Virus record (IMG/VR): IMGVR_UViG_3300045988_126226
Span: 131,035-192,808 of that record
DNA: 61,774 nucleotides
Strand: one strand, 5' to 3'
From: a virus
Position numbers and translations under genes: made by a program. A model generated the notes under the pieces. The model worked only from the letters and a program-made list of their open reading frames with translations, was not told the origin of the DNA and made no database searches. This document shows, piece after piece, positions 2,376-31,899 of this stretch; the first letter of the stretch is position 1; every line of letters starts with the position of its first letter.

Positions 2376-2381
2376 AATTAA

Positions 2382-3449: not shown

Positions 3450-3473
3450 AGGTTTTTTTCCTCCTTAAAAAAT

Positions 3474-4199
3474 TTAATGGATATTTTTCATCCAGTTATC
3501 CGGCTTATTATCAGGCTTCGCGCCAGCTAATCTAGACCGGATATCAATATCCCAATTAATATAAAGTTGATATCTTTCAACAAGGTCATAGAGTTGGAAC
3601 ATTGTTAAATCCATTAAATCCTGTAAAGACATTGAATCAAGACCTACAGTAAGCATTGAAAGATACTAACTAAATATACTAGCGTTAGCCGTGCCGTTTA
3701 ATTCAGCGACACGTTGTCTACCTCGCATTAATTTATCGGCTATTTTTTTCGCGGCCGCATTTCCAGGATTAAATCCCATTTCTTGCGAAGCATTAGACTT
3801 AAAACAAAATATTTCTTTAATATATTCCTATAATATATTAAAATTACTTTCGTCAATCATTATTTGCGGGTCACCTTGTAAAACAATTGACCTAGGGGTA
3901 AATAAAACATTTTGCTTTGGAAACAATAATGTAAGAACCTACATAGATGCTTGTTTTTTATCGGCCATCTCTTTTTCTTTCATCATTGTCATAAATATCT
4001 AAAAATTATTTGTTTCTCTTAAAAGACTTTCGCCCGAATTCTCTATTATGTTTTTATCAATACATAAGCACTAAATCCCCAAGAAAAGATCTTTTTCACC
4101 TATAAAAGAAATCTCTTTTATAGATGGCTAATGAATAGTAACTTCTAATTCAGGTATCGGCAAATCAATACCAGTCATTAAACCAAGTCTAATATCCAT
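3474..4199 (-). CDS. late structural protein (241 aa, 9 in-frame TAG)
   Basis: ATG 4199-4197 overlaps upstream stop (TAATG); frame open to TAA at 3474 only with TAG as sense. Confidence 0.45.
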
Positions 4200-4780
4200 T
4201 ACTTTTCAGTTCTTTTTTTAAAATCTTCTATAAATCTTTCCTCATCATTAGGATTTGGCATAAATTTCTTATCTTCTTCACCATGGACTGCTTGATACAT
4301 AAGACACAAACCAGCATATTCATCAGTTAAAATAATTTGATTAGCACCAAGAAACTCCAACTTGCCAATACCAGTTAAATGTGTTTTATCTATCATACTG
4401 TCAATTTCAGCAGCAATGCGATAAGGGCGTAATTGATAATCTTTTAAATGCCACTAATCATAATGACACACAATATCAAATTCAATAATATTATCTCTAA
4501 ATTCTGGATTTTCACTCTAGACAAAATTATCAAAATTAATAACTATATAATTTAATACACTTCCATCAACATAAAGTTTAGGAATTATTTTAATATTTTT
4601 ATTAAATAATTGAATCATCTGTTCATCATTTAAATCCGGTTTATCAATAGCATCTTTTGTTGTATAGTATAATAAACGTTTAAGTCTTTCATTTTTACAA
4701 AGATGCTTTACAACAATTTCTAAATCTTTTTCAACAGAAAGAAAACTTGATTTAGGTAAATTTACACCATTAATTTTCAT
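4199..4780 (-). CDS. late structural protein (193 aa, 3 TAG)
   Basis: ATG 4780-4778 with SD aaggag; 4517..4780 and 4199..4396 in frame via TAG. Confidence 0.5.
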
Positions 4781-4795
4781 AACACCTTTTACTCC

Positions 4796-5860
4796 TTAAA
4801 ACAATGATTGAACTACAATTGTTTTTTTATAATCTCCATAACATAAGTCAAACTATCCACTATATCCAGAAGTCCAACTTATTTCAACTGTTGGCTTTTT
4901 AGCCTCTTTAATAACTTTTAAAGAAACTGGCAACTTTTTATTATTCTCTATTTTCCATTCTAAAGCAACTTTACCATCAAAATAATAAGTATAAGTTTTC
5001 TTTGGAAAAATAAACGTTTCCCCTATAATATCAGTTGTCATAGGATTTGGATCGACCGGTTCCGCAATTAAAGAACCAACAGTCTTATCATCTAAATTAT
5101 CTTCCTACTCATTAATATAATATTCAGTTGCATTGACTTCCAAAATGCCAGGCATGCCTATGGAATCTACAGCTTCAACGCGCCAACAAATTAAATTATC
5201 TCCTTCATCCTAACTATCTAAATAAAATTTAGTATAACGTCTAAAATAACTTAAAGTATCTTTATTTTTAGGCATTAAAATATTTAATGAATAATTAGGT
5301 CGATCCACGCTAATTTCATGTTTCTAAATATAATCAATTTTCGTTTCTACTGGACCGCGAATCGCTGCGTAAGTAGATTTTTTCTCTCCATCATCCACCC
5401 AATTTATTTTATAAGAGCATTTTCTAATATCCCCTCTAAAATAAGCTAATTCAGTCAAATCCTAAAGATAACAAATCCAATAAGTATTAGTTCCGCACCA
5501 TTCAAAAATATCTCCTGGTTTAAACTAATATTCATTTCCAACAGACAAAATCTTATCATCATAATCCTATTTTAATTTATTAGGATTAATCAAACATCTA
5601 ATAGGTTTTTTATATTCCGCGTCCTACTTAATAATTTCCGCGGCTTGGTATGAATTCCATACTGCTCTATCCAAACTTCTGCGCTTAGATAAAATCATAC
5701 GTTCTTGTTGGCGGTTTCCGCCCATTTGACCGAGCCGAACCGCTGTATAATTAACGCCTTCAACAGGGCTACCTTCAAAGGGTGGTTTATCATAAATCCC
5801 TAAACGACCTTGCTATAATCTAAAAGGTTGCTTACTACTATAATCAAACCCTGACGCCAT
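4796..5860 (-). CDS. late structural protein (354 aa, ~9 TAG)
   Basis: ATG 5860-5858 with SD aggag; continuous frame to TAA 4796 when TAG is read through; includes ORF 4853..5041. Confidence 0.5.
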
Positions 5861-6062
5861 AATTTATCTCCTATAAAAGACTGATAGTTTCAAATACAGT
5901 CTTACGATAAAAATTAAAATCAGTATCTTGATTCTACAATCCCTCAAGTTTGTTTAATAACTATAAATAAAGGGGTTCAGCGTTAAAAATCACACTAAAC
6001 CCCACAATTTCATTTATAACAGTTTCTAGCTATTTATGCCAATCTTCATTATTTTCGCGCAT
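5844..6062 (-). CDS. small late protein (72 aa, 4 TAG), overlaps next gene start
   Basis: ATG 6062-6060, TGA stop at 5844; weak. Confidence 0.25.
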
Positions 6063-6141
6063 TGGAATTAATTTCCATAATTGATTGGTTAAGCGCAAAC
6101 AATTTACTTTTATACTCTCTATTGGAATATCAAAATTATAT

Positions 6142-6720
6142 TTAGTAATCATATCGACTTTTAAATACATCCCAATTAGATTCATACTCACCTTTATTAT
6201 TTAAACGTCTGCGTTTATATAAACGCTACATATGGTGAGATTGTCTTTGGCATTCACCTAATAAATTCAATAGTTTTGATAGATGATTTGCCTAAGAAGT
6301 AAATTTAAAATCAGAGCCACTATATTTCATTCGAGTATTCTCAATTGAAGTGACTTGTCTTTGCGTCCAACCGCACATCATTAAAATAGCTAAAATATTA
6401 ATTTCTTCTTCAGTTAGATCACAATTAAAACTGGATCTATCAACTAAAACTTGAGGTTCTTCACCCGGTTCTGGAAGTTCCCCCCATACTGTTCCTACAA
6501 TAAAATCATCCGGCATAGCGTCAGATTCATTAATAGTAGCGACATCTAAATTATAATTTAAAAGATTTTTTCGCGGAAATTCAAATCCAGGAATAGCATC
6601 TATTATAAGATTCTATAAATCTCTTAAAGTATCTTCGGGGGTTAATTCCAGATACATATCATCAGTAACCTTGTTTAGAAAGCGATTATAAACAGTTGAG
6701 AATAATGTTCCCACTTAATC
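6142..6720 (-). CDS. late structural protein (~192 aa, 3 TAG)
   Basis: GTG 6720-6718 preceded by SD ggaggg; includes ORF 6292..6516; TAA stop. Confidence 0.4.
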
Positions 6721-6733
6721 GCCCTCCTATAAA

Positions 6734-7327
6734 TTATTTCTTGGAGGAAGTTTCCTCGGTTTTATTAATTACTTTATATCCAGAACCGCTTGTGCGACGA
6801 CCTTGAGTAGTAGGCTCTTCTCTTACTACACGGCGCTTAGCCGCAGGTTCTTTCTCTACAATAGTATCTTCTTCTTTACTAGCGATATCATTAGCAATAG
6901 CTTTATCAACATCAAACCCAGTTTTTTCCTTCAAAGCTCTACGCTTATTAATATCAGTAATAGGAAGGCTAACAGATAAATTCTTGATTAAGTCAATAAT
7001 TCCAATAGGAGCAAAATCAAGAGCATCTAAGAAAGCATCTAATGAGCCATTAAGAATTAAATCAGCAACTTGTTGCTCTGACATATTATATTCAGGTTCA
7101 GTATGAACATTAAGAGTATGAGTTACTTCTGGCTCTAAAATTTGTAAAAAATTAGCGATTAATTCACGGCCGCCTGCCTGGTAAGTTAATTTCTCTAGCT
7201 CACCAAATGGAATACGCTTAGTTTCACCGGGCGCAAATTCACGGCGCAAATTAGTATCAGGAATAGTATAAACAACTACACTAGTGCTTCTATTTTTTAC
7301 ATTATAAATATCTTCATTATTAATCAT
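6734..7327 (-). CDS. head-associated protein (197 aa), basic C-terminus
   Basis: complete ORF with SD aaaggag, TAA stop; lies between capsid candidate and tail genes. Confidence 0.55.
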   Translation of the reverse strand: MINNEDIYNVKNRSTSVVVYTIPDTNLRREFAPGETKRIPFGELEKLTYQAGGRELIANFLQILEPEVTHTLNVHTEPEYNMSEQQVADLILNGSLDAFLDALDFAPIGIIDLIKNLSVSLPITDINKRRALKEKTGFDVDKAIANDIASKEEDTIVEKEPAAKRRVVREEPTTQGRRTSGSGYKVINKTEETSSKK

Positions 7328-7359
7328 TATTCAATTTCTCCTTTTACCCATAAAACAAA

Positions 7360-7396
7360 AATATGGGGGGAGGGAGTTTAATCCCTTCTCCCCATG
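7360..7396 (-). terminator. intrinsic terminator downstream of capsid gene
   Basis: G/C-rich hairpin ggggggaggga...tcccttctcccc plus T-run on minus strand. Confidence 0.45.
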
Positions 7397-7413
7397 GAAT
7401 AATTTATATTAAA

Positions 7414-8520
7414 TTAGACAGTACCGTCAAGGCGACCATCATAAGTGATAACCTTACCAGTAACTCCATCATAATTCCAAGTATACATCTGACCGAGAAG
7501 TGAAGTATCAACATAAGCACAGATGTTATTAGTAAGCATACAAACTATGCCAACCTTCTTGTAAACCTGAATCTCACGAGAACGATCATAATTATTGAAC
7601 TCATCAACAATAGTGCCGCCTTCGAAAGCAATCTTTACAGGCTTACCATCAGCGCCCGTAGGAATAACCCAAGCATAACCAGGATCAATAACCTTACGAG
7701 TATTAGTTTCATCTTCAAAACCCTGCTCAAGAATAATAACCTTAATGCCCTTATAAGTAGCAAGACGACCATTATTCCAAAGCTCGTTCTTCATAGCTTC
7801 AGTATATCTCCAAGCCTCATGAGGAATCATCTTAACAGCGAACTCATAAGTACAATAAATAGTAGGAGTACCATAAGCAGAAGCAATAGTGATCAAACGA
7901 TCCATAGCAGCTTCATCAAATCCGGCAGCCGCAACGCGGTTAGCAGGAGGAAGCTGATTGATAGAAGATCTAAGAGCCGCAGCAACTTCTTTATAAATAA
8001 GTTCATCCATACCATCCATGATGATCTTGGTTACTTCACCGAAATCAACACGACCATCAAGGAACTCTTCGAAGCCAATCTGAGCAGCTCCGCCGATAGC
8101 GCTAGTACGTACCTCGAAGGCTTCATTCTCTTTAGGTCCGAGCTTGAAGACTTCGTAAATACCAGCAAGACCAACGCGAGTTACAAACTGCTTAGCACGA
8201 GCGCGGTTATTAAGAGGACGACGGAAAATAGGCTTATCACCCTGAGCGAAAGTCTTAACCTCAGCAAACTGATCGTATTGCTGAATAACTTTCTTAGGAA
8301 GAACCTCATCAAGAGTCTGCTCGATCATGGAGAAAATAAGATTCTTATTTTCACGATAAAGAGCATAAGTACCAGCCAACTCATTCATTTCATTACGAAG
8401 AGTTTCATTTAAGGCTTCATAACTAAGATTTTTTCCCTCATAACTATAAGCAACAGGAGCAGAAGGATCAGCCTTAGCAACTTGCTTCATAAGAGCAATT
8501 AAATTATTTTTATCTAACAT
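7414..8520 (-). CDS. major capsid protein candidate (368 aa, TAG-free)
   Basis: uninterrupted ORF, SD aaaggag, followed by terminator; size and position (after scaffold-like gene) fit an HK97-class MCP; absence of TAG may reflect high expression. Confidence 0.45.
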   Translation of the reverse strand: MLDKNNLIALMKQVAKADPSAPVAYSYEGKNLSYEALNETLRNEMNELAGTYALYRENKNLIFSMIEQTLDEVLPKKVIQQYDQFAEVKTFAQGDKPIFRRPLNNRARAKQFVTRVGLAGIYEVFKLGPKENEAFEVRTSAIGGAAQIGFEEFLDGRVDFGEVTKIIMDGMDELIYKEVAAALRSSINQLPPANRVAAAGFDEAAMDRLITIASAYGTPTIYCTYEFAVKMIPHEAWRYTEAMKNELWNNGRLATYKGIKVIILEQGFEDETNTRKVIDPGYAWVIPTGADGKPVKIAFEGGTIVDEFNNYDRSREIQVYKKVGIVCMLTNNICAYVDTSLLGQMYTWNYDGVTGKVITYDGRLDGTV

Positions 8521-8537
8521 TATCCTTTTCTCCTTTC

Positions 8538-9455
8538 TTACTTAATACGCATTACCTTGACGCCCTTTTGACCATCAGGCATAGTATAAACCTTAACAAC
8601 CTGCCAGGTCATTGAATCGTCGCCAGTTTTGCTAAGAATACCCTTTGTAGCAGCAGAAGGAGAAAGTTTATCTCCAACAGCAAGAGTCTCTTCATTAATC
8701 ATATTAGTAGTATAAAGATCACCAATCATGGTCTTAAATACACGAGGAACCATAGAAGTGCCAGATTCCATGAACTTCTCATGATAGATACCTAACTTAT
8801 GATATGGATCATTGGTCCAATTCATTTCATACATATCAGGAACATCAGTAAGAAGTTTATCATAATAATACTTTACAGGAACATTAGCAACCTGATGATT
8901 ACTATCAAGAGTATATTCATTACCATCATAGGTAAACTTGCCGGTTTCATCAACATCATAAACACGACCAGCAATAGTAACAGTCTTTAAACCCTGATCT
9001 GCGGAAACGGTCTGATTGATTAATTTATAGGTTTGACCCTTTTCATCAACGCCGTTCCAGAAACGACCACCATATTCAACCTCGGTATGCTCCCAATCAT
9101 AAGGACTATAAACACGAGCCTGATAGTCATCTTTAATCATAGCAAATTCGCAATCCCACTGCTTACTGCCATCATAATGATCGCGATAAAGCTTGATCTC
9201 GTTATAAACGAGCATCCATTCACCTTCGCCAGTGAAGTTGACTTCGCCAATACCATTATCATTAGCAGCATAGTCATACTTTACAAACTGACCGTTTTCA
9301 AGAATCTCAATGTCTTTATTAGCAGGAAGTTGAGCATAGATTTGAGCATTTCTTTGTGCGGAAAGGTGATTAGGCTCGACCTGACCGTAACCAAACTCAA
9401 CATACTTTGCCTGAGACTTAATAAAAAGATTCTTATTCAAAAAGTCTTTAAACAT
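8538..9455 (-). CDS. head protein (305 aa, TAG-free); alternative MCP or decoration protein
   Basis: uninterrupted ORF with SD aaggagg between scaffold-like gene and MCP candidate. Confidence 0.45.
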   Translation of the reverse strand: MFKDFLNKNLFIKSQAKYVEFGYGQVEPNHLSAQRNAQIYAQLPANKDIEILENGQFVKYDYAANDNGIGEVNFTGEGEWMLVYNEIKLYRDHYDGSKQWDCEFAMIKDDYQARVYSPYDWEHTEVEYGGRFWNGVDEKGQTYKLINQTVSADQGLKTVTIAGRVYDVDETGKFTYDGNEYTLDSNHQVANVPVKYYYDKLLTDVPDMYEMNWTNDPYHKLGIYHEKFMESGTSMVPRVFKTMIGDLYTTNMINEETLAVGDKLSPSAATKGILSKTGDDSMTWQVVKVYTMPDGQKGVKVMRIK

Positions 9456-9472
9456 TTAGTATGTCCTCCTTA

Positions 9473-11059
9473 TTAATTTTTGTTGGCGGTAGCAAAAGCC
9501 GCCTTCACCCAAGCGGGCATATCATCATCTTCTGAACCATTATCGTTCAAATTAAAAGTAGTAGCACCATTGGGCTTATTATTTTCGTCAAGGTCGAAAC
9601 TCACCTTGTTGCGAACACAAATAACAGATAATTTAGCTTCAATATCATCAAGAGAATATTTATCAATATTTTCAACAACATCAGCCTTATCTTCATCAGA
9701 AAGCATATAGAATTTAGCAATCATATCTTCTTTATCTTTCTTCTCAGCGGCATTTTTAAATTCAACAAGTGGAGCAATTTGCTCTTTCAAGCTATTATTT
9801 TCAGTTTCAAGAGCCGCGAATTTAATCTGTAATTCATCATACTGAGCTTTAAGTTCAGTATATTCAACAACGTCCTCAAGAGAATAATTTTTCTTTTTCT
9901 TTTTATCATCATCATTCTCGCCATTGTCGCCTTTATCAGACTTATTAGAGGGTTCCCCATTATCAGGGTTCTTTTTATTATCATTGCCCTCTGATTTATT
10001 ATCAGGGTTTTGGCCATTAGATTTATTATTTTTGTCCTCTTCCTCAGCCTTTTTCTTTGAAGCATAGTCAGTCTCAAAAGCTTCAACATCAGCAAGAACA
10101 AATTGAGGCTCTGCTGCCGGAGTATAAGACTTAGTTACTTCAGTTAAAGCATCAGAAGGAACAAAGCCTTCTACATCGGTAAGAGAAAAGTCCATGCGAT
10201 AATATTTTTGGTCTTGTCTATTTTGAAGAATAGCAAACTTTTGTCCAGCATCTTCATAAACGCCTTCAATGCGATAAATAGAACAATAACTACTAGGCTC
10301 GCCAGGATATTTAGTCTCAACATAAGACCAGAGAGAATTCCACAAACTATCGCCAATTTCAACAGCATATTGTGTAAACACTTTGGGTCCTCCTTCTTTC
10401 ATAAATTCTTTAAGTTCATTCATCATGGAGAACAAAGTGTTCTTAAAACCATCATCGAATGAAAAATTCACATTGATTTGGGAGCCTTCGAAACAAGGTT
10501 CATTTTCTTCTCCCAAAATACAAAGTTTAGAAATAATTGCCTTATTTATAATAAAAAACTAAGGCTTTCCATTACTATCTTTTGCCCACGTAGCATTTAA
10601 TGTTTTTTCATCAAGCTCCATAGAATGATTATTCCCTTTCTCAACTACACGTTTACACTCAGGATACTAACCAGTCCACAAATAACCTTCAGTCATTAAA
10701 TACTCACGTTCAGCAACACCATCATCCAAAAATTTCTAAAACCAAACTTTAGCTCCAAGATCAACAAAACCATAAGGGCGAGTATTATCTCTCATTCTAA
10801 ATTCGCCATTAGATAACTCAATTATCCTATTATGTTCTTCAAAATCTTCCGCATTCTCATTAAAAAAGCCAACAATAGGACTGCCAGGAAGGCTATTAGC
10901 CATCTCAGTCGCTACATCTTTAGTAATTACGCTTTTGTTACGATTAGGTTTATCATCTACATAACAAACCTTAATTTGACATTTAGAAATTAAAGGATTT
11001 ACAGGAGTTATATTTATAAACTCACAAGGTGTATTTAATTTAATACTTGTATGTTTCAT
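9473..11059 (-). CDS. prohead protease/scaffold-like fusion protein (528 aa, 3 TAG)
   Basis: ORF 10736..11059 (ATG, SD aaggagg) continues in frame through TAGs into ORF 9473..10516; C-terminal coiled coil and K/D/N-rich low-complexity tail; sits immediately upstream of capsid genes. Confidence 0.45.
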
Positions 11060-11068
11060 AAATCCTCC

Positions 11069-12631
11069 TTATTTCATCGCTTCTTTATTTTGAATAGTTT
11101 TTTCACTTTTCTAATCATCAGGTTTTTCCGGACGTCCTGCCTCGCCATTAGAAACTTTAGCAGTTCCAGAACCTGAACTTCCTGAATTATTTTGAGTTTT
11201 ATTATTAGATGATGAACCTTTTAAACCCAAAATATCTTCACTACCCATAGTAGAACTCATAAGAGGAGGAATCATAATTTCACTTAAATGTAAAATCTCA
11301 TTTTCAAAATGAGCTGCATTAAGAATAAAACTCTATGAATGTCCAAGAGCAATCTAAGACAATAGTTTTGATTGTCCCATTTGCGCTTGTTCTTTATACA
11401 TTTTAGAAAGTGTTTGATAATTATTTTGAGTAGTTTCTAATAAATAAAATCTAAAATTATATTTTTTATTACTACTCTTTTTCTCAATAATTCTATTAAA
11501 GAATATATTAAACTATAAAATTAAGCTTCTTATTGTAGATTCATCATTTAATACTGATTTTTCTAAAGCCATATTGCCATCAGTATTAAATAAATTCTAT
11601 GAAATACCTAATGAATTATAAACACTACGTTCAACTTTAGCTAAATCATCTGTCGTTGTAGTAGTATTCTTATCAGACATATCAATAGAATCTACATCAG
11701 TAAATGTAGTTAAAACATCTACTCCAATAGCCCTCTATAACATCTAAACGGCATTATTATGGATATCTCTGGCTTCATCAACATCAAATATCAAATCACC
11801 ATTTTTATCCATTGGGAGCTTTTGGACTAAAATTTTAAGCAACTTCTACATTTGTTTCTTGCGGTCAAGATCTTGCGCTGCATCTAAATCCATAATAGTA
11901 GGAATGGAATTTACAAAAATAGGAACATCACTATTATTAATATTAAATTTAATACAATTTTCTGGCTCAAGAACATACCAACTACCAGTATGCTAGCATC
12001 CAACCGCTTCTTCTAAAGCAAGTTTTCCTTGCTTATATAAAACATAACCTTTAGCAAATTCTTCTGGGAATAATTTTAATACTTTTAAGCGGTAATTCAT
12101 ATCTCTAAAAGTATCAAAAAATCGCATATCAAATTCGACAACTGGGGTATTATTTACACTATAACGTGTTCTACAATATCTAACGGGCAATTCTTGTAAA
12201 ATTAGATTTTTTTCTGAAGGAACTATATATCCATAATAGCATCCATTTTTAACGACTTGTAAAGCAATATCTCCGCAAATCTTTTTAATATAACTATTAT
12301 CAAAATAATTCAGCATTCTATAAAAATCTTTTAAAACTTTTTCTTCTTTTACATTATCATCATAAGTTTCGGCCGCAATATACCAATCATAGCGGTATAA
12401 AAAAGCAACATAATTACAAACTCGTTGATATACACCACTTATATCATAATAAAAATTAGAAATGTATCGTAAAGCATTTAAGTCCCTTTCTGCGAGCGCG
12501 CGAAGCACATCAGGTTTCGTGATAATACGAGTTTGACCTGGGTATCTAATCTTACTATAATCACCAAGTTTTAAAATAGCATCATCTAAAGTTTTTGTGC
12601 CAACTTTTATTTTTCTATTGGCATAATCCAT
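11069..12631 (-). CDS. portal protein candidate (~520 aa, several TAG)
   Basis: ORF 11993..12631 continues through TAGs to TAA at 11069, which abuts the SD of the next gene; Ser/Gly/Asn-rich C-terminus; position after terL; start could be TTG near 12718. Confidence 0.45.
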
Positions 12632-12731
12632 AGTGTCATTATAATTATATTCATAACGACTATTATAAATATCAAAACCTTTAGCGTGAATCTAATCATT
12701 ACGATCTTGCGTATCCAAAGTTCCACCTCCT

Positions 12732-13088
12732 TTAATAACCTGCCAATTTCATTATATAATCATAAGAAATAAGGTTTTCGTCGGTATATGGAATCTCTAT
12801 TAATCTAAAATCATGTAAAGCGCAAAAACGTCTTTTTTGATTATCATTATATTGCTACTGGTATAAACCGCGTTTTCCGCCAAATTTAGAACTGGCTTCA
12901 TAATGCTATTTTCCCTAATACTCAATAATGAAATCAATTTTTCCATCATCATCAAATATAACAAAATCAAAACGAAGCGGACGCCCGCTGGGGCTTTTTA
13001 AATCTGGAAAGATATATTCCATTTTAAAAGGTAGTCCTGCTTCTTCTAAGATTTCTTCAATTTTAATTTCTCCTCTTGAAGCACGCAT
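12732..13088 (-). CDS. stand-alone PD-(D/E)XK (Vsr/DUF559-like) endonuclease, HEG-like (118 aa, 3 TAG)
   Basis: ATG 13088; motif RFDFVIFDDDGKIDFIIEY-Q-GKQHY resembles the C-terminal domain of the 40346 endonuclease; inserted between terL and portal. Confidence 0.45.
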
Positions 13089-13100
13089 TTTCCACCCTCC

Positions 13101-14840
13101 TTAATTTAAAAAGCACCAATCAGCCGCATTAAACTTTTTACGTTTTTTCTTTTTATCTTCTTCAAGTTTTAAATAATATAATCCATATTCAAAAGCCGAA
13201 AATTTATCTTTACGAATTCCGCGATTCGCCTGTTTTAGAATAATATTAATACCTTCATTTTCTTCGCGTAAATTCATCATTTCTTCTTTTAATATGGAGG
13301 TTAAAGTAAATGGTTTTAAATAATCTGCCCTTTGTTCAGAAGTCATTTTTGAACCTTTTTGAGTAGCTAATAATTTTTCTTTAGCTGTTCTCTCATCTAT
13401 TAAGAATTTTATCTTGCCCGCCTGTAATTGAGTCTAAGCATTAGCATGACATTCAGTATTTATTGGAGCATTTGCTTTAATAACATACATAGCATCAAAT
13501 TGAGTATTTGGTGTGCGATATTTTTTATAATATCCATCATCATCATTCTCAACACCAAAATCAGGTAAAAATTCACCATCTTCATCATTTTGAGATTTTA
13601 CCATATAATCTAAAAGTCCAATACCTAAACCGTTACCGTCTATAACCAAAGTTTTAGCTTTATATTTATAAAATAATTTCTTTAATTTAATAGCCTAATC
13701 TTCAAAATGGTCATCTGACATAGTATACATATTTACTAAAGATTTAATAGCTGGACCTTGGGCTTGTGGTGTTACTTTAAATACGCAAACTACCGAATCG
13801 CACCCCTTACGACCTACATCTACAGAAAGCACATAATAAGCTTGCGCGCCCGCGCGTCCAGAAGCTTCATATTCAGGCTATAATAGTTTTCTATTTCTAT
13901 CAAAATGCTCTCCATTAAAGAAAGCATCTTCAACAGTTCCTGACCACTTAGATTCATATTCACGTTCAAATGAGGCCTCGTTATAAGTTCCTTCATTCTT
14001 TTGGTCAGTAATAAATGTCTTACTTTGTAATCCTACCGCAACAGGAGTTCGCCATGTTCCACCTAATACCATACAACGATCGGGCTAAGTCACCATACGA
14101 ACTAAGAAACCAATAAGTCTATCATAAGGGAACGTGCCCTTATAACCAGCAGTAGTAATATAGATTTGTGATTTATTTAATGGCTCTTGTTCATTGGTAG
14201 TGCCATCTTTAGCTCTACGAGAAATTGCCATAACAGGAATAATAACTTCACGAAGAATAGCATCATCAATACCAACACACTCTTCCATTAATCCACCATG
14301 ACGACGCTGACCACGAGTGCTTTCACGAGCTGCGAGGTTATCCAAAACTGAACCATTTTTAAATACATATCTAACTTTATCTTTTCCTTCAAGAGTTTTT
14401 CCTCGGCTCCAATCAATTTCTCGATTAAAGTTTGGAATAAGTTCACATATTTCTTGAACTTTATCATGAAGAATACTAGCACCTTGCTCTTTACCTCCAG
14501 AAGTAACGAACAAATGCGCACCAGGATATAAAATACATCTAATCATTAATGCCATAACAGACAAAAATGATTTAGAATAAGCACGAGGGAAAACCGCGTA
14601 AACATACTAATAACGCATAACAGAACGGAGAAATACTCTCTAATAAAAATAAAAATTAAATTCTCCATCTTTTATTTCAGTGCGTCTTCCTCGCACCATA
14701 AAATCTACAAATAAATCAGGATATTCTCTCCAAAAGGCAACGTATTTGCGGATAGTAGGCATTACCGCTTCTACTCGCTCCGGTGATAACCCTATTTTTC
14801 TACGGCTATCACTTAACTACAGTAAATCTTGTAATGCCAT
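13101..14840 (-). CDS. terL: terminase large subunit (579 aa, 7 in-frame TAG)
   Basis: hand translation joins ORFs 14085..14564, 13878..14072, 13434..13649, 13101..13346 in one frame through TAG; N-terminal ATPase region and C-terminal nuclease-like IDGNGLGIG/ESKWSG motifs; ATG overlaps upstream stop (TAATG). Confidence 0.6.
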
Positions 14841-16027
14841 TATTTATCCAAACCCTATAAGAACTCATTATCTTGCGCAGACTCCTATTCTTTAAATTCC
14901 TCAAAATCCGCGTAATCACTATCTTTAATAGTTTTTTCAAGTTCTTCAATACTTAAATCAGCATCATCAACGATATCGCTTTCCGCGTTCTTTGCTTTCT
15001 CTTCATCTTCTTTAGCATTTTCGCGTAAAGCCTTTTCTACCATTGTGCTAATATTAGTTTCATCTTCAATAAGAGTGCGAGTATAACGTTGCATATCTTG
15101 AATAGTTAAATCCACTTTATCATGTGGCTATTCAACATAATATCTTTCAATATATCCTTCTTTTTCACATAATTCAATTAATTCGCCAATTGAATCAACA
15201 AATTCACCTGATTCTGCTTTGTTTTGAGCAGCAGTAAATTTACCAGACTTCATTAAGCTATCGTATACTTTGCTCATCTTTTGGAAACCTTCAATATCAC
15301 CAATATCGATCAATTGATTTGCCTTTAAAGATGTCTTACATATTAATTTTAGCGTATCTTTATGTCCGGCACCTTGAATATCATAAGAAGCCATCATTTC
15401 TTCATACAACTATTCAAGCTTAACCCATTCTTCAGGCTTATAAGTCTTGCCCCATTTAAGTCTTAAATAAGTGCGGTCTTCATCAGTTAAGTCTAACTCT
15501 TGTTCAACTTTACCACTCTATTGTGCAAAATAATCTTCCGTAGGGGCATTAGGTGGTGGAGCATAAACCGGTTCTTTTAATTCTCCTCCTGGAATAGTGA
15601 TTGAACTTTTTTCAATAGCAGTTGCGATCTACTGAGCGTCATATCCTTGACGTTTCATAGTTTGCTCTAATTTATTATTCGCCATCTATTGTAAAAATTC
15701 AGTATCTTTCCAACGATAATCTTTAAACTATTTGAGTTTCATTTTTGACAAATAACGTCCAAGAATCGTCATACCGGTCATAGACTGCGGATCGCGCCCA
15801 TATTTTTCCATTAATTTATTCCATTCATCTGGAACATAAGGAACATCCGCTTCTTGTAAAATCCATAAATAAGTATCTGGATTCCAATTATCGACGTGCA
15901 TTGTCATACATTTTTTGCACACGGGAAATTTACCATCATTAGGATATTTTTCTAAATTATTAGATGAATAAAATTCCGTGCCATTCATTGTACGATTACA
16001 TTTTTCGCAATAATATGTTTCAGCCAT
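14840..16027 (-). CDS. Zn-ribbon protein upstream of terL (395 aa, 7 TAG); possible small terminase/DNA-packaging protein
   Basis: ORFs 15728..16027, 15128..15409, 14885..15115 share one frame via TAG; N-terminal CxxC...CxxC; acidic C-terminus; coupled to terL. Confidence 0.4.
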
Positions 16028-16076
16028 AAATAAAATATTCTCCTTTCAACTATTTATTATAAACAAAAGGACAATA

Positions 16077-17132
16077 TTAAGATTTTTTGGCCTTAGAATT
16101 TCGACAACTTTTACAAATACTATAAAAGCCATCTTTGCTTGTTTTATTTTTACTAAAATATTTATTATGAGCTAATTTTATTTTACCACAACGACTACAT
16201 TTTTTATATTTACCTTTTTCAACATTTAAATAATAATTATCTAAATATTCATCTTCCGCAGTCGAAGCAATTAATTTTGGAATTTTATTACGCCATAAAC
16301 TTGAAATATATTCAAGGCTGTGCTTAATACCAAATTCCATTTGTATTTTCTCTTGAATGTCAATATTTTGTAAACCATCAATTTTATATTCAACGATTCT
16401 ATCATAAAGAGGATAATTAGCTAAAGCTTTATCACAAAGCTTATCAAAATCCTCCATTAAGTACCACAAGTCTTTATCATATTCGCCCCAACTATCTTGT
16501 TTTAATCGGGAATAATTACATAAAACCGCAGAACATATTTCAGGTCTTAATAAACTAATTCCATCAGGAATGGGAAAACCATCATCATCAAAAATAAATG
16601 TTTTATCATCTAATGGAATATAAGACTTTGATCTGGTTAATTTTGTAGGCACTATTGGACGACGATAAGCATTTTTCATAACATACTAATCTTTGCGCAT
16701 TTCAATAAGAGCCTTTTTAATAACAAAAGCATCTTTGCCTTCTGTTACTTTTAATTTAGCCTCCCAAACATTAATGGCTTCTCTTAACTAATTTAAACTT
16801 GGTATCTCTTCTAAATCTTTTTTTGTAATTGTAATATGTGGTTGAAATATTGTATTTCTATTATTTGTAATTAAATTATAAATTCCATCTTCGCCATTTT
16901 CGAGTTGGGAAACAAGACCTTCAAAAGAAGTCTCACGCTTATTAACTGTAGCCATACGATTATCAGTTAATAATTTTTTCTCCTTTTTTTCTTGTTTCTC
17001 CATACAAAGAACCAAATAGTCTGCTAAAATTTCTAAATACTTTTCAGGCGGATCTGGATTATCAGCCAAAATTTGTTCGACTAATTGATTTCTTTCTTCT
17101 GGAGTTTGTAAAGAATAATCAAGTTTTATCAT
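16077..17132 (-). CDS. first gene of late operon (351 aa, 2 TAG), C-terminal CxxC Zn ribbon
   Basis: ORFs 16788..17132 and 16077..16679 in frame across TAG; ATG 17132 directly after divergent promoter region. Confidence 0.45.
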
Positions 17133-17324
17133 TTTTTACCTCCAGTCTATATTTATATTATACTCGAAAAAATTTTTTTTGTCAAGTTTCATTTAAAATT
17201 TTTTCTTTTTATATTTAAAAATTTTTTTAATAAAACAAATAACTTTTGCCCAATCACGCTCCACGATTTGACATTTCTTTATTTTTATTTTATTATTATT
17301 ATAAGAAAAAGAAAAGGAGTATTT
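17133..17324. promoter_or_regulatory. divergent AT-rich promoter region between late (minus) and early (plus) modules
   Basis: TTGACA-like boxes on both strands, A/T tracts, followed by SD aaaaggag and ATG 17325. Confidence 0.4.
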
Positions 17325-25992: not shown

Positions 25993-26245
25993 TTTTGAGA
26001 CGAGATAACCAAATCTCGTCTCAAAATTTTATTTATTTTGCCTATTGACAAAAATCCAATAGCGTGATAAAATGGCCGGCCGTTCGCGCATGCCACGGCC
26101 GGAAATTCCATTATACCACCATCTCAGCAATTTGTCAATAGGAAATTTAGCCAAAAGTCTAACTAATTATTTTCCCGAATTTGGGCATTTTACCAATAGA
26201 CAAGAATGTAATAATCTGCTATACTATGATTACCGTAAAGGAAAG
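25993..26245 (+). promoter_or_regulatory. regulatory cassette D: terminator; P1 ttgaca(26045)-gtgataaaat; hairpin ccggccg..cggccgg (26074-26102); conserved spacer; P2 tagaca(26197)-N17-tatact
   Basis: read directly. Confidence 0.55.
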
Positions 26246-28000: not shown

Positions 28001-28258
28001 ATGAAAGTAAATTTTGGCACTAAGGGTCAGCTTCAAATTATCAACATTCTCAGTGGTGGCACGTTCACCACCCCGCGTTCCAATGGCGTCGGCATGGGAA
28101 TGTATCTCAAAATTGACAGCAACAACAACACGCCGTTCGTTCGGTCGAGAGGTTCGCAGTATTGCTACGCGGTAAATCTTGAAACGGGTCAGGTTCGCGA
28201 GTTCTCGCGCGACAAAATGGTGACGCCGGTCAAGACCGAAGTCAATGTGATTGGCTAA
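28001..28258 (+). CDS. hypothetical protein (85 aa)
   Basis: SD agaggaaa, TAA, terminator. Confidence 0.5.
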   Translation: MKVNFGTKGQLQIINILSGGTFTTPRSNGVGMGMYLKIDSNNNTPFVRSRGSQYCYAVNLETGQVREFSRDKMVTPVKTEVNVIG

Positions 28259-28261
28259 AAG

Positions 28262-28492
28262 AAAATCTCCCCAAAAATGGGGAGATTTTTTTTGTTTACT
28301 TTAACTATTGACAAAACCATCTAAATGTGCTAAAATTGGCCGGTCGCTGACGCATGTTGCGACCGGAATTTACCATTATACACCCCACCAGCATTTTTGT
28401 CAAGAGAAATTTCGCACAAATTTCAATTTTATTTTTTCCCGTTATTTGGTTATTTTACCAATAGACAAATCATTACCAATCTGCTATACTAC
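28262..28492 (+). promoter_or_regulatory. regulatory cassette E: terminator; P1 ttgaca(28308)-tgtgctaaaat; hairpin ccggtcgc..gcgaccgg (28338-28366); TGTCAAGAG (28399); P2 tagaca(28462)-N17-tatact
   Basis: read directly. Confidence 0.55.
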
Positions 28493-28494
28493 AT

Positions 28495-28638
28495 AATGTC
28501 AGGAGGAAAGAGTAAGACCTGCGGAAAGGCAGTTCCCTTGACCATTATACCAAAATCCGACGGAATGTTCCAAGCGTGGCGTGCCGAACAAACTTTCAAA
28601 AAAAGTTTGAAAAACCCCTTGACAAACCGTTCTACGTA
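28495..28638 (+). ncRNA. promoter-proximal leaderless transcript AAUGUCAGGAGG... (sRNA or 47-aa leaderless ORF MSGGKSK.. ending in TAG)
   Basis: AUG lies 5 nt after -10 tatact; no SD; paralogous to 31032 and 31215 elements; ends at -35 of next promoter. Confidence 0.4.
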
Positions 28639-28901
28639 GGGTATAATGAATACATCAAATAAGAGAGGTAAACAAAATGATTTCTGATGCTCGTCCACCG
28701 CCTTAAAGACTGATTTGGTTTAGTAAAATGAATTGATTTATGATTATAGATAAAGGTAGGTATAAACAAGATGTATAGTAATAAACCTCGCGACCGCCCC
28801 CTAAAAAAATTGTAAAACCTATTGACAACCTGCTCCGCCTATGATATAATAACTACATCAAAGACAAGGACAGTCTTAAAAACCAGAAAGGAATTGATAC
28901 T

Positions 28902-29276
28902 ATGTCTACTTCTACTGTTAAGAAGCTCACCAAGCGCGACCGTTTCGAGGCTCTGCTCAAAATGAGCGAGGTTCAGGCGAATCCTGATATGGTGGCGTTC
29001 ATTGAGCATGAGATTGAACTGCTCGCCAAGAAGAACGCGGGCGATAAGAAGCCCACGGCCAAGCAGATGGAGAATGACGCCGTGAAGCAGGTCATTCTGG
29101 ACGAGATGACCGCAAACCCTGACAAGCTGTATACCGTGACCGACCTCATCAAGGGCGTTCCCGAGCTTGCGGAGTATACCAACCAGCGCGTTTCCGCTCT
29201 TCTGCGTCAGATGATTGATGCAGACACGGTTGTCAAGACGGTTGACAAGCGCAAGTCCTACTTCTCCCGCGCGTAA
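28902..29276 (+). CDS. paralog family protein A (124 aa)
   Basis: SD aaaggaa; about 70% identical to 31522..31899; distant paralog at 50327. Confidence 0.6.
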   Translation: MSTSTVKKLTKRDRFEALLKMSEVQANPDMVAFIEHEIELLAKKNAGDKKPTAKQMENDAVKQVILDEMTANPDKLYTVTDLIKGVPELAEYTNQRVSALLRQMIDADTVVKTVDKRKSYFSRA

Positions 29277-29419
29277 GGGTAAAGGGCAGGGGATAAAAAA
29301 AATCCCCTGCCCCACAATAAAAAACTGTTGACAAACCAATAGCAAAGTGCTATACTATTATCAGAGGTTGAGAGAACGATGGTAAACCTCAATCTACTTT
29401 TCCAATAGGAGACGATAAA

Positions 29420-30196
29420 ATGGGTATTGATAGGCGCAGAAACTACGGTATTATGCTGGACACGGAAACCGCAAACACCATTCAAGATGGTGATAAGCTG
29501 GATATGTCAAATGTTCTCCCCTACGACTTTGGCTGGGCGGTCATTGATTCCAAGGGTAATGTTTATGAGACTTATTCTTTTGTGAATCGAGACATTTTCT
29601 GCTATGAGCGCGACCTGATGCAGTCCGCATACTACGCCAATAAGATTCCCCGCTACATCGAGGACATTAAGAACGGTTCGCGCGTGATGGCTGACCTTTA
29701 CGAAATCCGCAAGGCATTTTGTGATTGCGTCGAGCGTTATAACTGTTCTTTCGTGTGCGCTCACAATATGCGGTTCGACCTTAACGCCTGCAACAACGCG
29801 CAAAGATGGGACACGAAAAGCAAGTATCGCTATTTCTTCCCCTACGATCTCGAAATCTGGGACACTCTGAAAATGGCGCGACAGGTTATGGGTAAAATGC
29901 CCACTTACCGCGACTATTGCGAAAAAAACGGCTACAAGACCAAGAACGGACAGCTCCGTTTCACCGCAGAAATTCTTTACCGCTTTATCAGCGGTGAAGA
30001 TAGCTTTGATGAATCCCACACGGGACTTGAAGATGTTCTCATTGAAGTTGAGATTCTGCGCTATTGCGTCCGACAGCACAAGGAAATGGAAAAGTCCCTT
30101 TTCAAAACTCCCACAGTGGAACGTCCCAAGCCGACCGAGTTTCAGCGCGCGCTCATGCGAAACATTAAGGAAAATCCCATGATAAACATGAGCTAA
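29420..30196 (+). CDS. DEDDh-type 3'-5' exonuclease (DnaQ/RNase T-like, 258 aa)
   Basis: Exo I MLDTETA, Exo II CAHNMRFDL, Exo III HTGLEDV motifs in correct order and spacing. Confidence 0.65.
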   Translation: MGIDRRRNYGIMLDTETANTIQDGDKLDMSNVLPYDFGWAVIDSKGNVYETYSFVNRDIFCYERDLMQSAYYANKIPRYIEDIKNGSRVMADLYEIRKAFCDCVERYNCSFVCAHNMRFDLNACNNAQRWDTKSKYRYFFPYDLEIWDTLKMARQVMGKMPTYRDYCEKNGYKTKNGQLRFTAEILYRFISGEDSFDESHTGLEDVLIEVEILRYCVRQHKEMEKSLFKTPTVERPKPTEFQRALMRNIKENPMINMS

Positions 30197-30274
30197 AAAA
30201 AAATAGGGAATGGGGCTTGACAAGTCCTATTCCCTATGGTATAATCAATGTATCAAATGAAAGAGGTGTTTTAC

Positions 30275-30553
30275 ATGACTGCTAAACAAGTCCTTTTTGT
30301 AGTCCCTGATGACAATGACCCTCACATGGGCATTTTAATCGACCATGACTATATTATCTGCGCCGAGTGCGGTGGCGTCTTTGAAGCTGACGAAGTTTTC
30401 ATTATTCAGATCTACGACTCTTGGGTAAACTTTGAAGATGAAATTGCGGACGAGCTTGACCTGCTGACCGCAAAAGACATTGGCAAGGAGCTGGATAGCA
30501 AGGAAAAGTTCGGCTGGGACGCGTGGAAAGAAGCCATTAAAGGGGAGTTCTGA
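30275..30553 (+). CDS. hypothetical protein with CxxC pair (92 aa)
   Basis: promoter cttgacaa..tataat, SD aagaggtg, TGA. Confidence 0.5.
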   Translation: MTAKQVLFVVPDDNDPHMGILIDHDYIICAECGGVFEADEVFIIQIYDSWVNFEDEIADELDLLTAKDIGKELDSKEKFGWDAWKEAIKGEF

Positions 30554-30555
30554 AA

Positions 30556-30648
30556 ATGGATTTGGATTTTACTTACATGACCAACGAAGAACTGGACGAA
30601 CTCATCGCTCAGATAAAGGAAGTCAAAGAAACCCGAGCGGAAAGCTGA
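30556..30648 (+). CDS. small acidic peptide (30 aa)
   Basis: ATG 3 nt after previous stop. Confidence 0.3.
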   Translation: MDLDFTYMTNEELDELIAQIKEVKETRAES

Positions 30649-30799
30649 AAGACTGACCTTTGGAGAAACGTTCAGCGGTCGGTTCAGAATTACGTCATGG
30701 AGTGTGGAATGATTGAACTCTTTACCGAGGACTACAATTCCACGCTGGACGCTGATTCTTTCCGTATTCCCGGCGAGATTAACCTGCTGGACTAAAATA

Positions 30800-31030
30800 A
30801 AAAACTGCCCAAAAATGGGCAGTTTTTTTTGTCTATTTTGCCTATTGACAAACGCGGATTTTTGTGATAAAATGGGCGGACCGCTGGCGCATGCGGCGGT
30901 CCGAATTTTTAATTATACCATGCCCCGCCAATTTTGTCAAGAGAAAAGCTGCACAAAAGTAAAGAAAATTTTTTCCCGTAATTTGGTTATTCTGTCAATT
31001 GTAATTTGTGGGCAATCTGCTATAATGAAT
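30800..31030 (+). promoter_or_regulatory. regulatory cassette F: terminator; P1 ttgaca(30845)-gtgataaaat; hairpin cggaccgc..gcggtccg (30875-30903); TGTCAAGAG (30935); P2 -10 tataat (31021)
   Basis: read directly. Confidence 0.55.
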
Positions 31031-31031
31031 A

Positions 31032-31175
31032 ATGTCAAGAGGGAAACCCCTGAGCCACAGGTCGGTGTGGGGCTACGGTTGGAAGTAGCAATAGACCGTT
31101 CACCTATTACGTTAAGGTCTCTTCGGAGCGGAACGCACGGGATAAAAGAAAAAATTCATGAGTTTTTTCTTGAAA
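31032..31175 (+). ncRNA. candidate sRNA 1 (starts AAUGUCAAGAGGGAAA; contains CUC-UUCG-GAG tetraloop hairpin)
   Basis: own promoter (-10 tataat 31021); no SD; only an 18-codon ORF ending in TAG; ends at -35 of next promoter. Confidence 0.45.
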
Positions 31176-31214
31176 ACCTCTTGACAAATCCCAGCGAGTG
31201 TGCTACAATAGAAA

Positions 31215-31440
31215 ATGTCAAGAGGGAGTAGCCCAAGAAATCCGAGGGCGCGCGACTTCGAGAAAGTACAGGAAGTAAACATAATATACCACGTTGTAAA
31301 GCCAAACGTTGAACGCGAAAGTGAGTTTGATTGAGCCAACTATACTCGAAGCGGTTTTCGCTGACAGATAGATTGAACCAACAAACAATAAATTATCCGT
31401 CAGGTCGGGGTAGTAATTCGTGTAAAAAGTTTGCGAAACC
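31215..31440 (+). ncRNA. candidate sRNA 2 (starts AAUGUCAAGAGGGAGU; shares CAGGUCGG motif with sRNA 1)
   Basis: own promoter ttgaca(31181)-N17-tacaat; no long ORF or SD; followed by promoter of 31522 gene. Confidence 0.45.
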
Positions 31441-31521
31441 TCTTGACAAGCACTCTAAAATGTGGTATACTCAATATATCAAAAGGGTAGCGACCTACCG
31501 CCAAAGAAAGGAATTGATACT

Positions 31522-31899
31522 ATGTCTACTTCTACTGTTAAGAAGCTCACCAAGCGCGACCGTTTCGAGGCTCTGCTCAAACTGTCCGAAGTTCAGGCTG
31601 ACCCCGCCATGGTTGAGTTTATCAATCACGAGATTGACCTGTTGGCTCGCAAGAACGCGGGAGACAAGAAGCCCACGGCGAATCAGATTGCCAACGACGG
31701 CTACAAGGACATTATCTTTGCTGAGCTGTCCGCGAATCCCGACAAGCTGTATACCGTGACCGAACTCATCAAGAACGTGGACGGTCTGGGTGACCTCACC
31801 AATCAGCGCGTTTCCGCTCTTTTGCGTCAGATGATTGACGCGAACGGCGTCGAGAAGATTGTGGACAAGCGCAAGTCCTACTTCCGTCTCGCGCGCTGA
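31522..31899 (+). CDS. paralog family protein B (125 aa)
   Basis: promoter cttgacaa(31443)..tatact, SD aaaggaa, TGA, strong terminator 31903-31935. Confidence 0.6.
   Translation: MSTSTVKKLTKRDRFEALLKLSEVQADPAMVEFINHEIDLLARKNAGDKKPTANQIANDGYKDIIFAELSANPDKLYTVTELIKNVDGLGDLTNQRVSALLRQMIDANGVEKIVDKRKSYFRLAR

Follow-up and report, generated by a model that had tools for sequence, protein, structure and literature searches.

The early promoters A1, A2 and A3 of phage T7 form a tandem cluster, and the early polycistronic RNAs of phages carry RNase III sites, among them the T7 R sites and those of SP82. 5′-terminal stem-loops of the ompA/aprE type also stabilise mRNAs, and bacterial Y RNAs (YrlA) have ends that form a long closing stem with a variable module, and a Ro-binding helix with a bulged C. 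In Firmicutes, the 5′ mRNA stabiliser STAB-SD (Agaisse & Lereclus 1996) and the polypurine stabiliser of the early RNA of Bacillus phage SP82 (Hue, Cohen & Bechhofer 1995) have been described, as cited in PMC3997798 and PMC7509114. The host-takeover (terminal-repeat) regions of SPO1 and the kayviruses are promoter-dense (PMC6445280, PMC7414437), and Cluster K mycobacteriophages carry SAS/ESAS, a short motif in one orientation before many genes, often with inverted repeats, which lies at translation starts and includes the ribosome-binding site (PMC3203893). Here we analysed a 61,774-nt stretch of viral DNA, positions 131,035 to 192,808 of IMG/VR record IMGVR_UViG_3300045988_126226 (the window), with a focus on three elements, E1, E2 and E3, that share a motif just behind their promoters. 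We interpret them as non-coding, stem-closed RNA cassettes in two tandem arrays of host-type (sigma-A) early promoters, a reading which on the sequence evidence we put at slightly better than an even chance.

The window of 61.8 kb has exactly three copies of the motif AATGTCARGAGG(R)A, all on the plus strand (at 28495, 31031 and 31214), and no copy is expected in shuffled sequence. Every copy begins 5 nt past a TG-extended −10, and E1, E2 and E3 each extend up to the next TTGACA (28619, 31181 and 31443), so that both observations of an earlier model-made reading of this DNA (the first-pass annotation) were correct: that the elements start just past a strong −10, and that they reach the −35 of the next promoter. 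The parts of the two arrays are as follows.

28462..28490, plus strand: promoter of E1 (TAGACA, 17-nt spacer, TG-extended TATACT), kept in 14 relatives
28485-28490, plus strand: −10 TATACT before the E1 copy of the motif
28495..28506, plus strand: leader motif AATGTCAGGAGG of E1, in which 28497-28506 is the 5′ helix arm TGTCAGGAGG
28495..28624, plus strand: E1, cassette type T1, 130-136 nt in relatives, with the 3′ end CCCCTTGACA (28615-28624)
28573..28544, minus strand: promoter-like site within E1 (TTGGAA, 18-nt spacer, TG-extended TATAAT)
28619..28647, plus strand: promoter after E1, its −35 being the 3′ arm of the predicted E1 closing helix
30999..31026, plus strand: promoter of E2 (TTGTAA, 16-nt spacer, TG-extended TATAAT)
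31021-31026, plus strand: −10 TATAAT before the E2 copy of the motif
31031..31186, plus strand: E2, cassette type T2, 157 nt, with its leader at 31031-31042
31181..31209, plus strand: promoter of E3, whose −35 (31181-31186) doubles as the 3′ arm of the predicted E2 closing helix
31204-31209, plus strand: −10 TACAAT before the E3 copy of the motif
31214..31448, plus strand: E3, cassette type T3, whose length is 222-237 nt among close relatives and reaches 286 nt among distant relatives
31443..31471, plus strand: last array promoter, driving the 125-aa gene 31522-31899, with its −35 as the 3′ arm of the predicted E3 helix

The complementarity of the motif to the −35 region of the next promoter is the key to this anatomy, and it was missed by the first-pass annotation. 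The sequence AATGTCAAGAGG is the reverse complement of CCTCTTGACATT, that is, of a promoter −35 hexamer with four bases of its 5′ flank. In both E2 and E3 the predicted closing helix joins TGTCAAGAGG (31033-31042 and 31216-31225, respectively) with CCTCTTGACA (31177-31186 and 31439-31448), and perfect 10-nt inverted repeats bracket the two elements. The end of E1, CCCCTTGACA, is again the −35 of the next promoter, and its helix with TGTCAGGAGG is imperfect, with 9 of 10 positions paired, one of them as G.U, and one A.C mismatch. Because the motif is the reverse complement of CCTCTTGACA and CCTC is enriched before the following −35, the leader and the next −35 are predicted to form a closing helix of 10-14 bp. 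Single-sequence minimum free energy folds use the arms as closing helices (z = −3.39 for E2, −1.87 for E3 and −2.43 for E1); in the E1 fold a local partner is preferred over the closing arm.

Selection on this pairing was examined in TG-extended promoters with a perfect TTGACA, by scoring CCTC directly 5′ of the hexamer:

Promoter after a leader-bearing promoter, itself without a leader: CCTC in 39/63
Promoter after a leader-bearing promoter, itself with a leader: CCTC in 15/22
Promoter not after a leader, itself without a leader: CCTC in 25/531
Promoter not after a leader, itself with a leader: CCTC in 1/28

CCTC precedes TTGACA in 62-68% of the leader-following promoters versus 4-5% of the others (Fisher p = 1e-27 and 1e-6), and since the contrast holds in both promoter classes, CCTC tracks the upstream leader and not the promoter's own. 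Complementarity between the start region and the next −35 is bimodal, with a background mode at 4-5/12 and a second mode at 9-12/12; at least 9/12 is reached by 49 of the 158 pairs. The arms lengthen jointly beyond the consensus (GAGGGAA with TTCCCTC, GAGGGG with CCCCTC), three of the four GGGG leaders have CCCC partners, and permutation of partners shortens the mean stem length (z ~3.8). At L325, the locus of a distant E2 homologue (fetched loci are labelled L), GUCAAGGGG pairs with CCCCUUGAC. Transition mismatches read on the plus-strand RNA are G.U in 15 cases and A.C in five, and the excess therefore has the direction expected for RNA rather than DNA pairing. As in 5′-terminal stem-loop stabilisers, enrichment, covariation and local hairpins point to a helix at the first nucleotides that is under selection.

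The leader is a generic signature. The pattern TAYAMT-N4-AATGTCARGAGG was scanned over IMG/VR and found in at least 119 stretches, versus one for the reversed leader used as control; in the fetched loci, 217/239 leader matches have a −35-like hexamer 16-18 bp upstream. For about 60% of the unique promoters with a leader, a further promoter comes within 280 nt, which defines the cassettes, and the remainder drive mRNAs or tRNAs. The first 55 nt, leader included, in the 61 unique non-cassette cases fold better than leader-fixed shuffles (mean z −1.28, p = 2e-8), with z below −2 in 36%, typically into a hairpin that begins at nt 2 and has the leader as its 5′ arm. Among 185,579 reference genomes the strict pattern occurred 33 times, at most once per genome, mostly in Oscillospiraceae and other Clostridia. 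A general host promoter feature was rejected on these counts, the exact matches being often in phage-like contexts, and because of this rarity we regard the leader as a signature of phages and mobile elements. Clostridia/Oscillospiraceae are the likely host clade to judge by these matches. A full-text literature search for the motif as a word returned unrelated primers only. In being repeated, in one orientation, before many unrelated phage genes, and often with inverted repeats, the leader resembles SAS/ESAS; it differs in lying at the predicted transcription start, in preceding tRNAs and non-coding cassettes as well, and in its unrelated phages and hosts.

At five of the loci (L135, L141, L143, L147 and L164, from Flavonifractor / Pseudoflavonifractor) the leader lies at one conserved mobile-element-like locus, where the promoter carries a ATCTACCGGTAGAT palindrome between −35 and −10. 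From its sequence this site looks like a regulated promoter of a prophage or other mobile element.

The position of the leader is nearly fixed. Counted from the −10, the A of ATG takes position 6 and the G of GTC position 8, and the G of GTCA holds to this position (7 nt between) in 90% of cases. This constancy would suit a DNA-level element, in which TGTCAAGAGG at about +1 to +12 serves as an initial-transcribed or discriminator element, or as the operator of a phage or host regulator, and the complementarity to the −35 is a by-product; so would the conservation of the leader far beyond the need of a helix arm, its presence before unrelated products, the related start motif (A/G)T(A/G)TCAA(A/G) at other early promoters of the window, and the operator-like palindrome at the Flavonifractor promoter. 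We nevertheless consider such an element unlikely, as it leaves unexplained why CCTC stands 5′ of the next −35, 60-250 bp off, only after a leader, why G.U exceeds A.C, and why mRNA leaders contain local complements. The reversed −35 in the leader, moreover, has no partner on the minus strand: a divergent promoter there was considered and rejected for want of a −10 at a distance of 16-18 nt from the reversed TTGACA.

The first-pass annotation stated that the elements lack Shine-Dalgarno (SD) sites. This is right in that no start codon (ATG, GTG or TTG) follows within 4-12 nt, at SD distance, but the motif itself is SD-like, with AGGAGG or AAGAGGG at leader nt 6-12. Like STAB-SD and the SP82 stabiliser, the elements thus have at their very 5′ end a polypurine block that resembles an SD (ARGAGGRA) but precedes no start codon, and, as in SP82, the block would lie on early phage transcripts made by host polymerase, with a predicted helix at or next to the 5′ end. 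Unlike STAB-SD, the block is a fixed 12-mer across many phages. Its GAGG is paired in the predicted folds, and the complement CCTC is enriched, so the block would usually not be free for 16S rRNA; its partner in the cassettes, at a distance of 60-250 nt, doubles as a promoter −35.

Between their common ends, the bodies of the three elements are unrelated, and the "family of transcripts" proposed by the first-pass annotation dissolves into a generic promoter-proximal leader that is used across many phages. E3 is a well-supported structured RNA by comparative sequence analysis. Its 5′ domain (~31226-31280) is conserved in distant phages, before different genes; it stands alone in L203 and with other 3′ domains in L187, L189 and L225. 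Two helices define the fold:

31241..31263, plus strand: hairpin of the E3 5′ domain, between two invariant single-stranded blocks, CCCAAGAAAU and AAGUA.AGGAAG
31290-31303 with 31409-31422, plus strand: long-range helix of E3 (RNAalifold), with C-G to A-U compensation in three sequences

In the alignment of the first hairpin 98% of cells are paired and 6/8 pairs are changed on both sides; 0/500 shuffles matched this, and no slid register came near. The long-range helix encloses a small hairpin and a hypervariable long one (~31325-31395), whose sequence is swapped between near-identical phages while the hairpin form is kept.

E2 is probably a structured RNA as well. It is predicted to contain, within the closing helix, a second helix, two invariant hairpins, a variable arm with a UUCG hairpin, and an AU-rich hairpin. 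Close copies of E2 are nearly invariant, and the informative comparison is with L325, the only useful result of a loose T2 pattern scan that gave mostly chance matches. Between the two, the closing helix changes A-U to G-C and the second helix C-G to U-A; L325 retains the two invariant hairpins, and the variable arm is replaced. The CTC-TTCG-GAG hairpin noted before is present (31117-31126) and sits in that replaced arm. The CAGGTCGGKGT motif said to be shared between elements does occur at 31058-31068 and 31401-31411, but about 0.3 such coincidences are expected by our own estimate for two elements of the size of E2 and E3, and it is kept in neither L325 nor the distant T3 members, so it was rejected as a functional signature. 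E1 is doubtful as a structured RNA, its structural support being weak. Its minus-strand promoter-like site resembles the convergent P2 promoters described below, and the −10 of that site is kept in relatives (TACAAT in L012).

No known RNA family was recognised in the elements. Rfam at gathering score gave only two tRNAs, elsewhere in the window, and at E <= 10 over 28250-31520 and L012 only terminator-driven noise, with no riboswitch, ribozyme, YrlA, tmRNA, 6S or other family. ARAGORN found no tRNA or tmRNA in the element region, all five of its tRNA calls in the window lying at 58771-61368. BLAST of the region and of the E3 5′ domain against cultured phages gave no match, and antisense targets of the element bodies within the window were at chance level. 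A retron, a type III antitoxin and CRISPR-like repeats were rejected, as there is no reverse transcriptase, toxin or identical direct repeat; a Spo0A box, a CsrA site and a LexA box were rejected because the core bases differ.

To compare the arrays between phages, 14 close relatives were gathered via the neighbouring 124-aa gene, and further loci by DNA patterns. The flanking protein of the close relatives is 87-98% identical (93-98% in all except L012). E1 is present in all 14, at 130-136 nt. The E2/E3 locus varies in content and holds one to three cassettes:

E3-type only: L006, L008
E2 + E3: window, L001, L003, L004, L009-L011
T4 + E2 + E3: L002, L013
T5 + E3: L007
T5 + E2 + E3: L014
T5 + T6 + E3: L005
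T7 + E3: L012

All fetched loci together yielded 104 unique leader-to-next-promoter cassettes, which fall into more than 40 unrelated body clusters with the same two ends, and several cassette families covary internally (e.g. cluster 5). In other phages the cassettes precede genes other than the 124/125-aa paralogue.

One cassette family (L012 5882-5986, L029 and L145) has a tRNA-like T-arm (GGGUUCAAAUCCC) and a GACG-loop hairpin with a covarying stem (UUAAG/CUUAA, UUCAAU/AUUGAA, CAGAG/CUCUG). This T-arm, together with a long closing stem that holds a variable module, is reminiscent of YrlA. The 3′ strand CUUGAC also recalls the Ro-binding helix, a likeness that is explained by UUGAC being the −35 box. 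In contrast to YrlA, no bulged-C helix is present and Rfam gave no match even at E = 10; no Ro/Rsr gene was seen, though no search for one was made.

Might the cassettes be functionless spacers between tandem strong early promoters, like those that separate A1, A2 and A3 in T7, the repeats and the leader stemming from duplication or recombination of one promoter unit? The arrays stand ahead of a gene and lack terminators, the cassette number varies, apparently by recombination between conserved promoter units, E1 resembles a decayed copy of the neighbouring module, and the sequences in the enrichment test are related to each other. Against this stand the clear compensatory evolution in E3, which is kept in distant phages before different genes, the more than 40 unrelated bodies with the same ends, the internal covariation of several cassette families, and the fact that CCTC goes with following a leader and not with being an array promoter that has one. 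We therefore give functionless spacers only a small probability, a little below that of the DNA-level element.

The first-pass annotation had offered small RNAs (sRNAs) or leaderless micro-ORFs (open reading frames) as alternatives. Comparison of homologues shows that the elements are non-coding. L002 and L013 differ by a 1-nt indel directly behind the leader (GGGGAAT versus GGGAAT), the E1 homologues L007 and L011 have 4- and 5-nt indels, and the lengths of close E3 homologues span 222-237 nt. The invariant CCAAGAAA block of the E3 family is in another reading frame in L093, and the putative E3 ORF stops at codon 15 in L203, 16 in L041, 29 in L044 and 39 in the window; neither frame nor peptide is conserved, and the substitutions in the E3 hairpin are compensatory for RNA pairing, not synonymous. 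The same leader is found before tRNA genes (L015, L043, L120 and L157) and before ordinary genes, which have an SD and an ATG of their own 30-60 nt further on. The ORF arithmetic itself was right, with peptides starting MSGG and MSRG and two ending in TAG; because the late genes of this phage read TAG as sense, ending in TAG is not a reliable stop late in infection. Also correct was that 31020-31480 is without a credible protein gene, as no conserved ORF was found there.

What favours leaderless mRNAs beginning at a 5′-terminal AUG, with peptides MS(R/G)G, or a weaker version in which 70S binding matters and the peptide does not, is that an NTG is always retained (ATG in 89%, GTG in 7% and TTG in 4%, in the TCA context) and that the distance from the −10 fits a start at the A of ATG. 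The T of NTG, however, also pairs with the terminal A of TTGACA, which accounts for its retention, and the indels, the differing frames, the early stops, the leader before tRNAs and SD-bearing genes and the compensatory substitutions all speak against translation. Leaderless peptides are thus largely refuted on comparative grounds, and we leave them a very slim chance. The sRNA half of the proposal fared better: the elements are non-coding and lie behind consensus promoters, and structure is strongly supported for E3, partly for E2 and doubtfully for E1.

Two clusters of tandem promoters result, one (28308, 28462, 28619 and 28822) ahead of gene 28902 and the other (30845, 30999, 31181 and 31443) ahead of gene 31522. 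As in the T7 A1/A2/A3 cluster and the SPO1/kayvirus regions, several host-type consensus promoters, at least three in each cluster, share one orientation over a few hundred bp of non-coding DNA and are followed by an early gene. The difference is that the inter-promoter segments appear here to be conserved structured RNAs in inverted repeats, with the −35 also a helix arm; to our knowledge, neither structured inter-promoter RNAs nor such a dual-role −35 has been described for T7, SPO1 or kayvirus phages. Plus-strand terminator-like sites are absent from 31020-31480, from the whole interval between 30903 and 32949, and after E1. The elements therefore differ from classical sRNA genes, having consensus promoters without an intrinsic terminator of their own.

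The leader, with or without its hairpin, might instead act on the polymerase in cis, through a sigma-dependent promoter-proximal pause or nut/put-like antitermination. (T/A)AATGT resembles a −10, and A2 and T6 of this −10-like hexamer are kept in every variant seen; a conserved linear block close to the promoter, with a variable hairpin after it, would also fit, as would the many terminator-like hairpins of the region. Yet there is no terminator downstream within the arrays, the 12-nt leader is far smaller than put, the neighbouring genes gave no match in Pfam and PHROG scans, so that no N- or Q-like protein came to light, and the pairing with the next −35 is left unexplained by either version. 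An action in cis of this kind seems to us improbable, more so than the DNA-level element or the functionless spacers.

Our preferred reading, that of stem-closed RNA cassettes, is inferred rather than observed as to the start site, the helix in vivo, stabilisation or processing, and any function in trans. Each cassette would be transcribed from its own consensus promoter, starting at A(6) or G(8) after the −10, and the RNA would begin with the generic leader (A)AUGUCARGAGG. Polymerase reaching the next promoter would add CCUCUUGACA, the −35 box with its 5′ flank, to the transcript, and this would pair with the leader into a helix of 10-14 bp with 0-2 unpaired 5′ nucleotides. In mRNAs and tRNA precursors of related phages, a nearby complement would close the leader into a small 5′-terminal hairpin. 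The helix could shield the 5′ end, and in cassettes the 3′ side too, from 5′-end-dependent decay (RppH, RNase J1 or RNase Y in Firmicutes); alternatively or additionally, it could mark a site of double-strand processing. Stable stem-closed RNAs would accumulate from the read-through early transcript, and the cassette bodies, structured in E3, probably in E2 and doubtfully in E1, may be independent small RNAs acting in trans. By analogy with the known stabilisers, 5′-end protection or processing of early RNAs is the most likely role. Like the T7 R and SP82 sites, helices that separate the units of an early transcript with several promoters could set discrete RNAs free. They differ from those sites in their lesser length (10-14 bp) and in closing entire cassettes instead of forming local hairpins, and cleavage is hypothetical.

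Several points weigh against this reading. Many of the compared sequences are related, so part of the CCTC enrichment may be descent of one promoter unit, and it could to that extent reflect common descent of array-internal promoters and not selection; the covariation beyond the consensus is modest and again among related sequences. The near-invariance of the 5′ arm calls for a reason beyond the helix: its partner may have to stay a −35, a factor or RNA polymerase may read the sequence, or both. In E1 the helix contains an A.C mismatch and covariation is absent, and the body aligns with the neighbouring P1, GC hairpin and convergent P2 module, so that E1 looks like a decayed copy. The start site is placed from the −10 spacing. 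As no terminator follows any cassette, the cassettes could be parts of one long 5′ leader rather than discrete small RNAs. Finally, GAGG, if paired, cannot also serve as a ribosome-binding stabiliser.

A more far-reaching interpretation is that the arrays are an RNA accessory locus of large Clostridia phages, in which fast-evolving, self-promoted structured RNAs, of more than 40 families and in part with tRNA-like arms or exchangeable hairpins, are mounted in one leader/−35 scaffold, recognised by a factor for processing or protection, and act in trans as decoys or regulators in host takeover or counter-defence. We hold this as a tentative possibility, clearly less probable than the stem-closed cassettes as such.

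The carrier is a large TAG-recoded gut phage whose hosts are probably Oscillospiraceae, its relatives being contigs of about 100-197 kb. In the late genes at 428-17135 (minus strand), and also at 55993-58691 (plus strand), long ORFs tile only with TAG as sense. With TAG read as Q, 13101-14843 (minus strand) gives a full-length large terminase and 11069-12748 (minus strand) a full-length portal, and only then are there full-length family matches; a suppressor tRNA(CUA) was not found in the window. At the DNA level the terminase shares 65-70% identity with its counterparts in Enterococcus phages of 134-142 kb, which we take to belong to Herelleviridae, a group to which SPO1 and the kayviruses are related. 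The 20-33-kb stretch of the window, with its dense consensus TG-extended promoters, small genes and terminators, appears to be an early-type region and resembles by analogy the promoter-dense host-takeover regions of SPO1-like phages and kayviruses, with which it shares early small genes, variability between close relatives and a distantly similar (Herelleviridae) terminase.

E1 and E2/E3 sit in two copies of one duplicated unit, in which the order is terminator, P1, GC hairpin, convergent P2, weak-35 promoter, cassette(s), further promoter(s) and a paralogous gene at the array end:

28902-29276 and 31522-31899, plus strand: 124/125-aa paralogous genes, 78% identical over 300 nt

Pfam and PHROG scans of the flanking genes, these paralogues included, gave no match.

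The beginning of this unit belongs to a module with six plus-strand copies (22174, 24249, 26045, 28308, 30845 and 32999), each with an upstream terminator, a consensus promoter (TTGACA, 17-nt spacer, TAAAAT or TATAAT) and, from 1-3 nt past the −10, an 8-bp GC hairpin (loop ~12 nt) and a short T run. The stem sequences vary between copies and relatives with complementarity kept. The promoter is followed immediately by a terminator-like hairpin. Perfect-consensus minus-strand promoters at 28403..28375, 30940..30912 and 26138..26110 face P1 across the GC hairpin; their transcripts would open with the full hairpin, cross P1 antisense and stop at the bidirectional terminator of the upstream gene, and the arrangement looks like an sRNA gene of ~110 nt.

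Two short reading frames lie between E1 and the 124-aa gene. The micro-ORF MISDARPPP-stop (28677-28706, plus strand) has a strong SD and its own promoter (28619), and relatives keep M(I/T)(S/T)(D/N/E)(A/V)RPPP while CGT and CGC interchange synonymously; the peptide may be a leader of the polyproline-stop kind, possibly one that stalls ribosomes. A second micro-ORF, MYSNKPRDRP.., starts at ~28771, and in L004 and L012 a ~110-nt deletion between two CCGCC repeats fuses both. Upstream of the E2/E3 array, ORF 30556-30648 (plus strand) ends in TGA with an in-frame continuation into ORF 30697-30795, which could be read-through or recoding, or simply two small ORFs.

Further along the plus strand, a second, AT-rich promoter class was found at 33138-60160 (e.g. 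33277, 38740, 46424, 58700 and 60041), with a near-fixed spacer and start: TTGA(C/T)(A/T)-TTTT(T/A)AAAAAA(A/T)ATAATA-TATAAT-ATATATAGAAA. This consensus suggests a separate temporal class. Among the ARAGORN calls, 58771-58841 (plus strand) is a tRNA with an undetermined anticodon, and within 58771-58948 (plus strand) there is an 85-nt 'tRNA-Trp(CCA)' with a long variable arm, unusual for tRNA-Trp.

Three features of these loci appear to be new: a promoter −35 that would serve a second time, as the 3′ strand of a closing helix in RNA, one 12-nt leader common to many uncultivated Clostridia phages, and a bracket that mounts many unrelated small structured RNAs in arrays which differ between near-identical genomes. 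If the reading is correct, the −35 box would double as an RNA helix strand, and the signature −10, N4, AATGTCARGAGG ... CCTCTTGACA could be searched for in metagenomes to find phage non-coding RNA cassettes, a product class that is almost unannotated. For annotation, gaps of 130-240 nt of this kind should not be filled with small ORFs. Cassette content differs where the flanking genes are 93-98% identical, a pattern expected of host-interaction loci, and, again if the reading is correct, a single 12-nt leader would give hundreds of transcripts of uncultivated gut phages, whether mRNAs, tRNA precursors or small RNAs, the same protected 5′ end.

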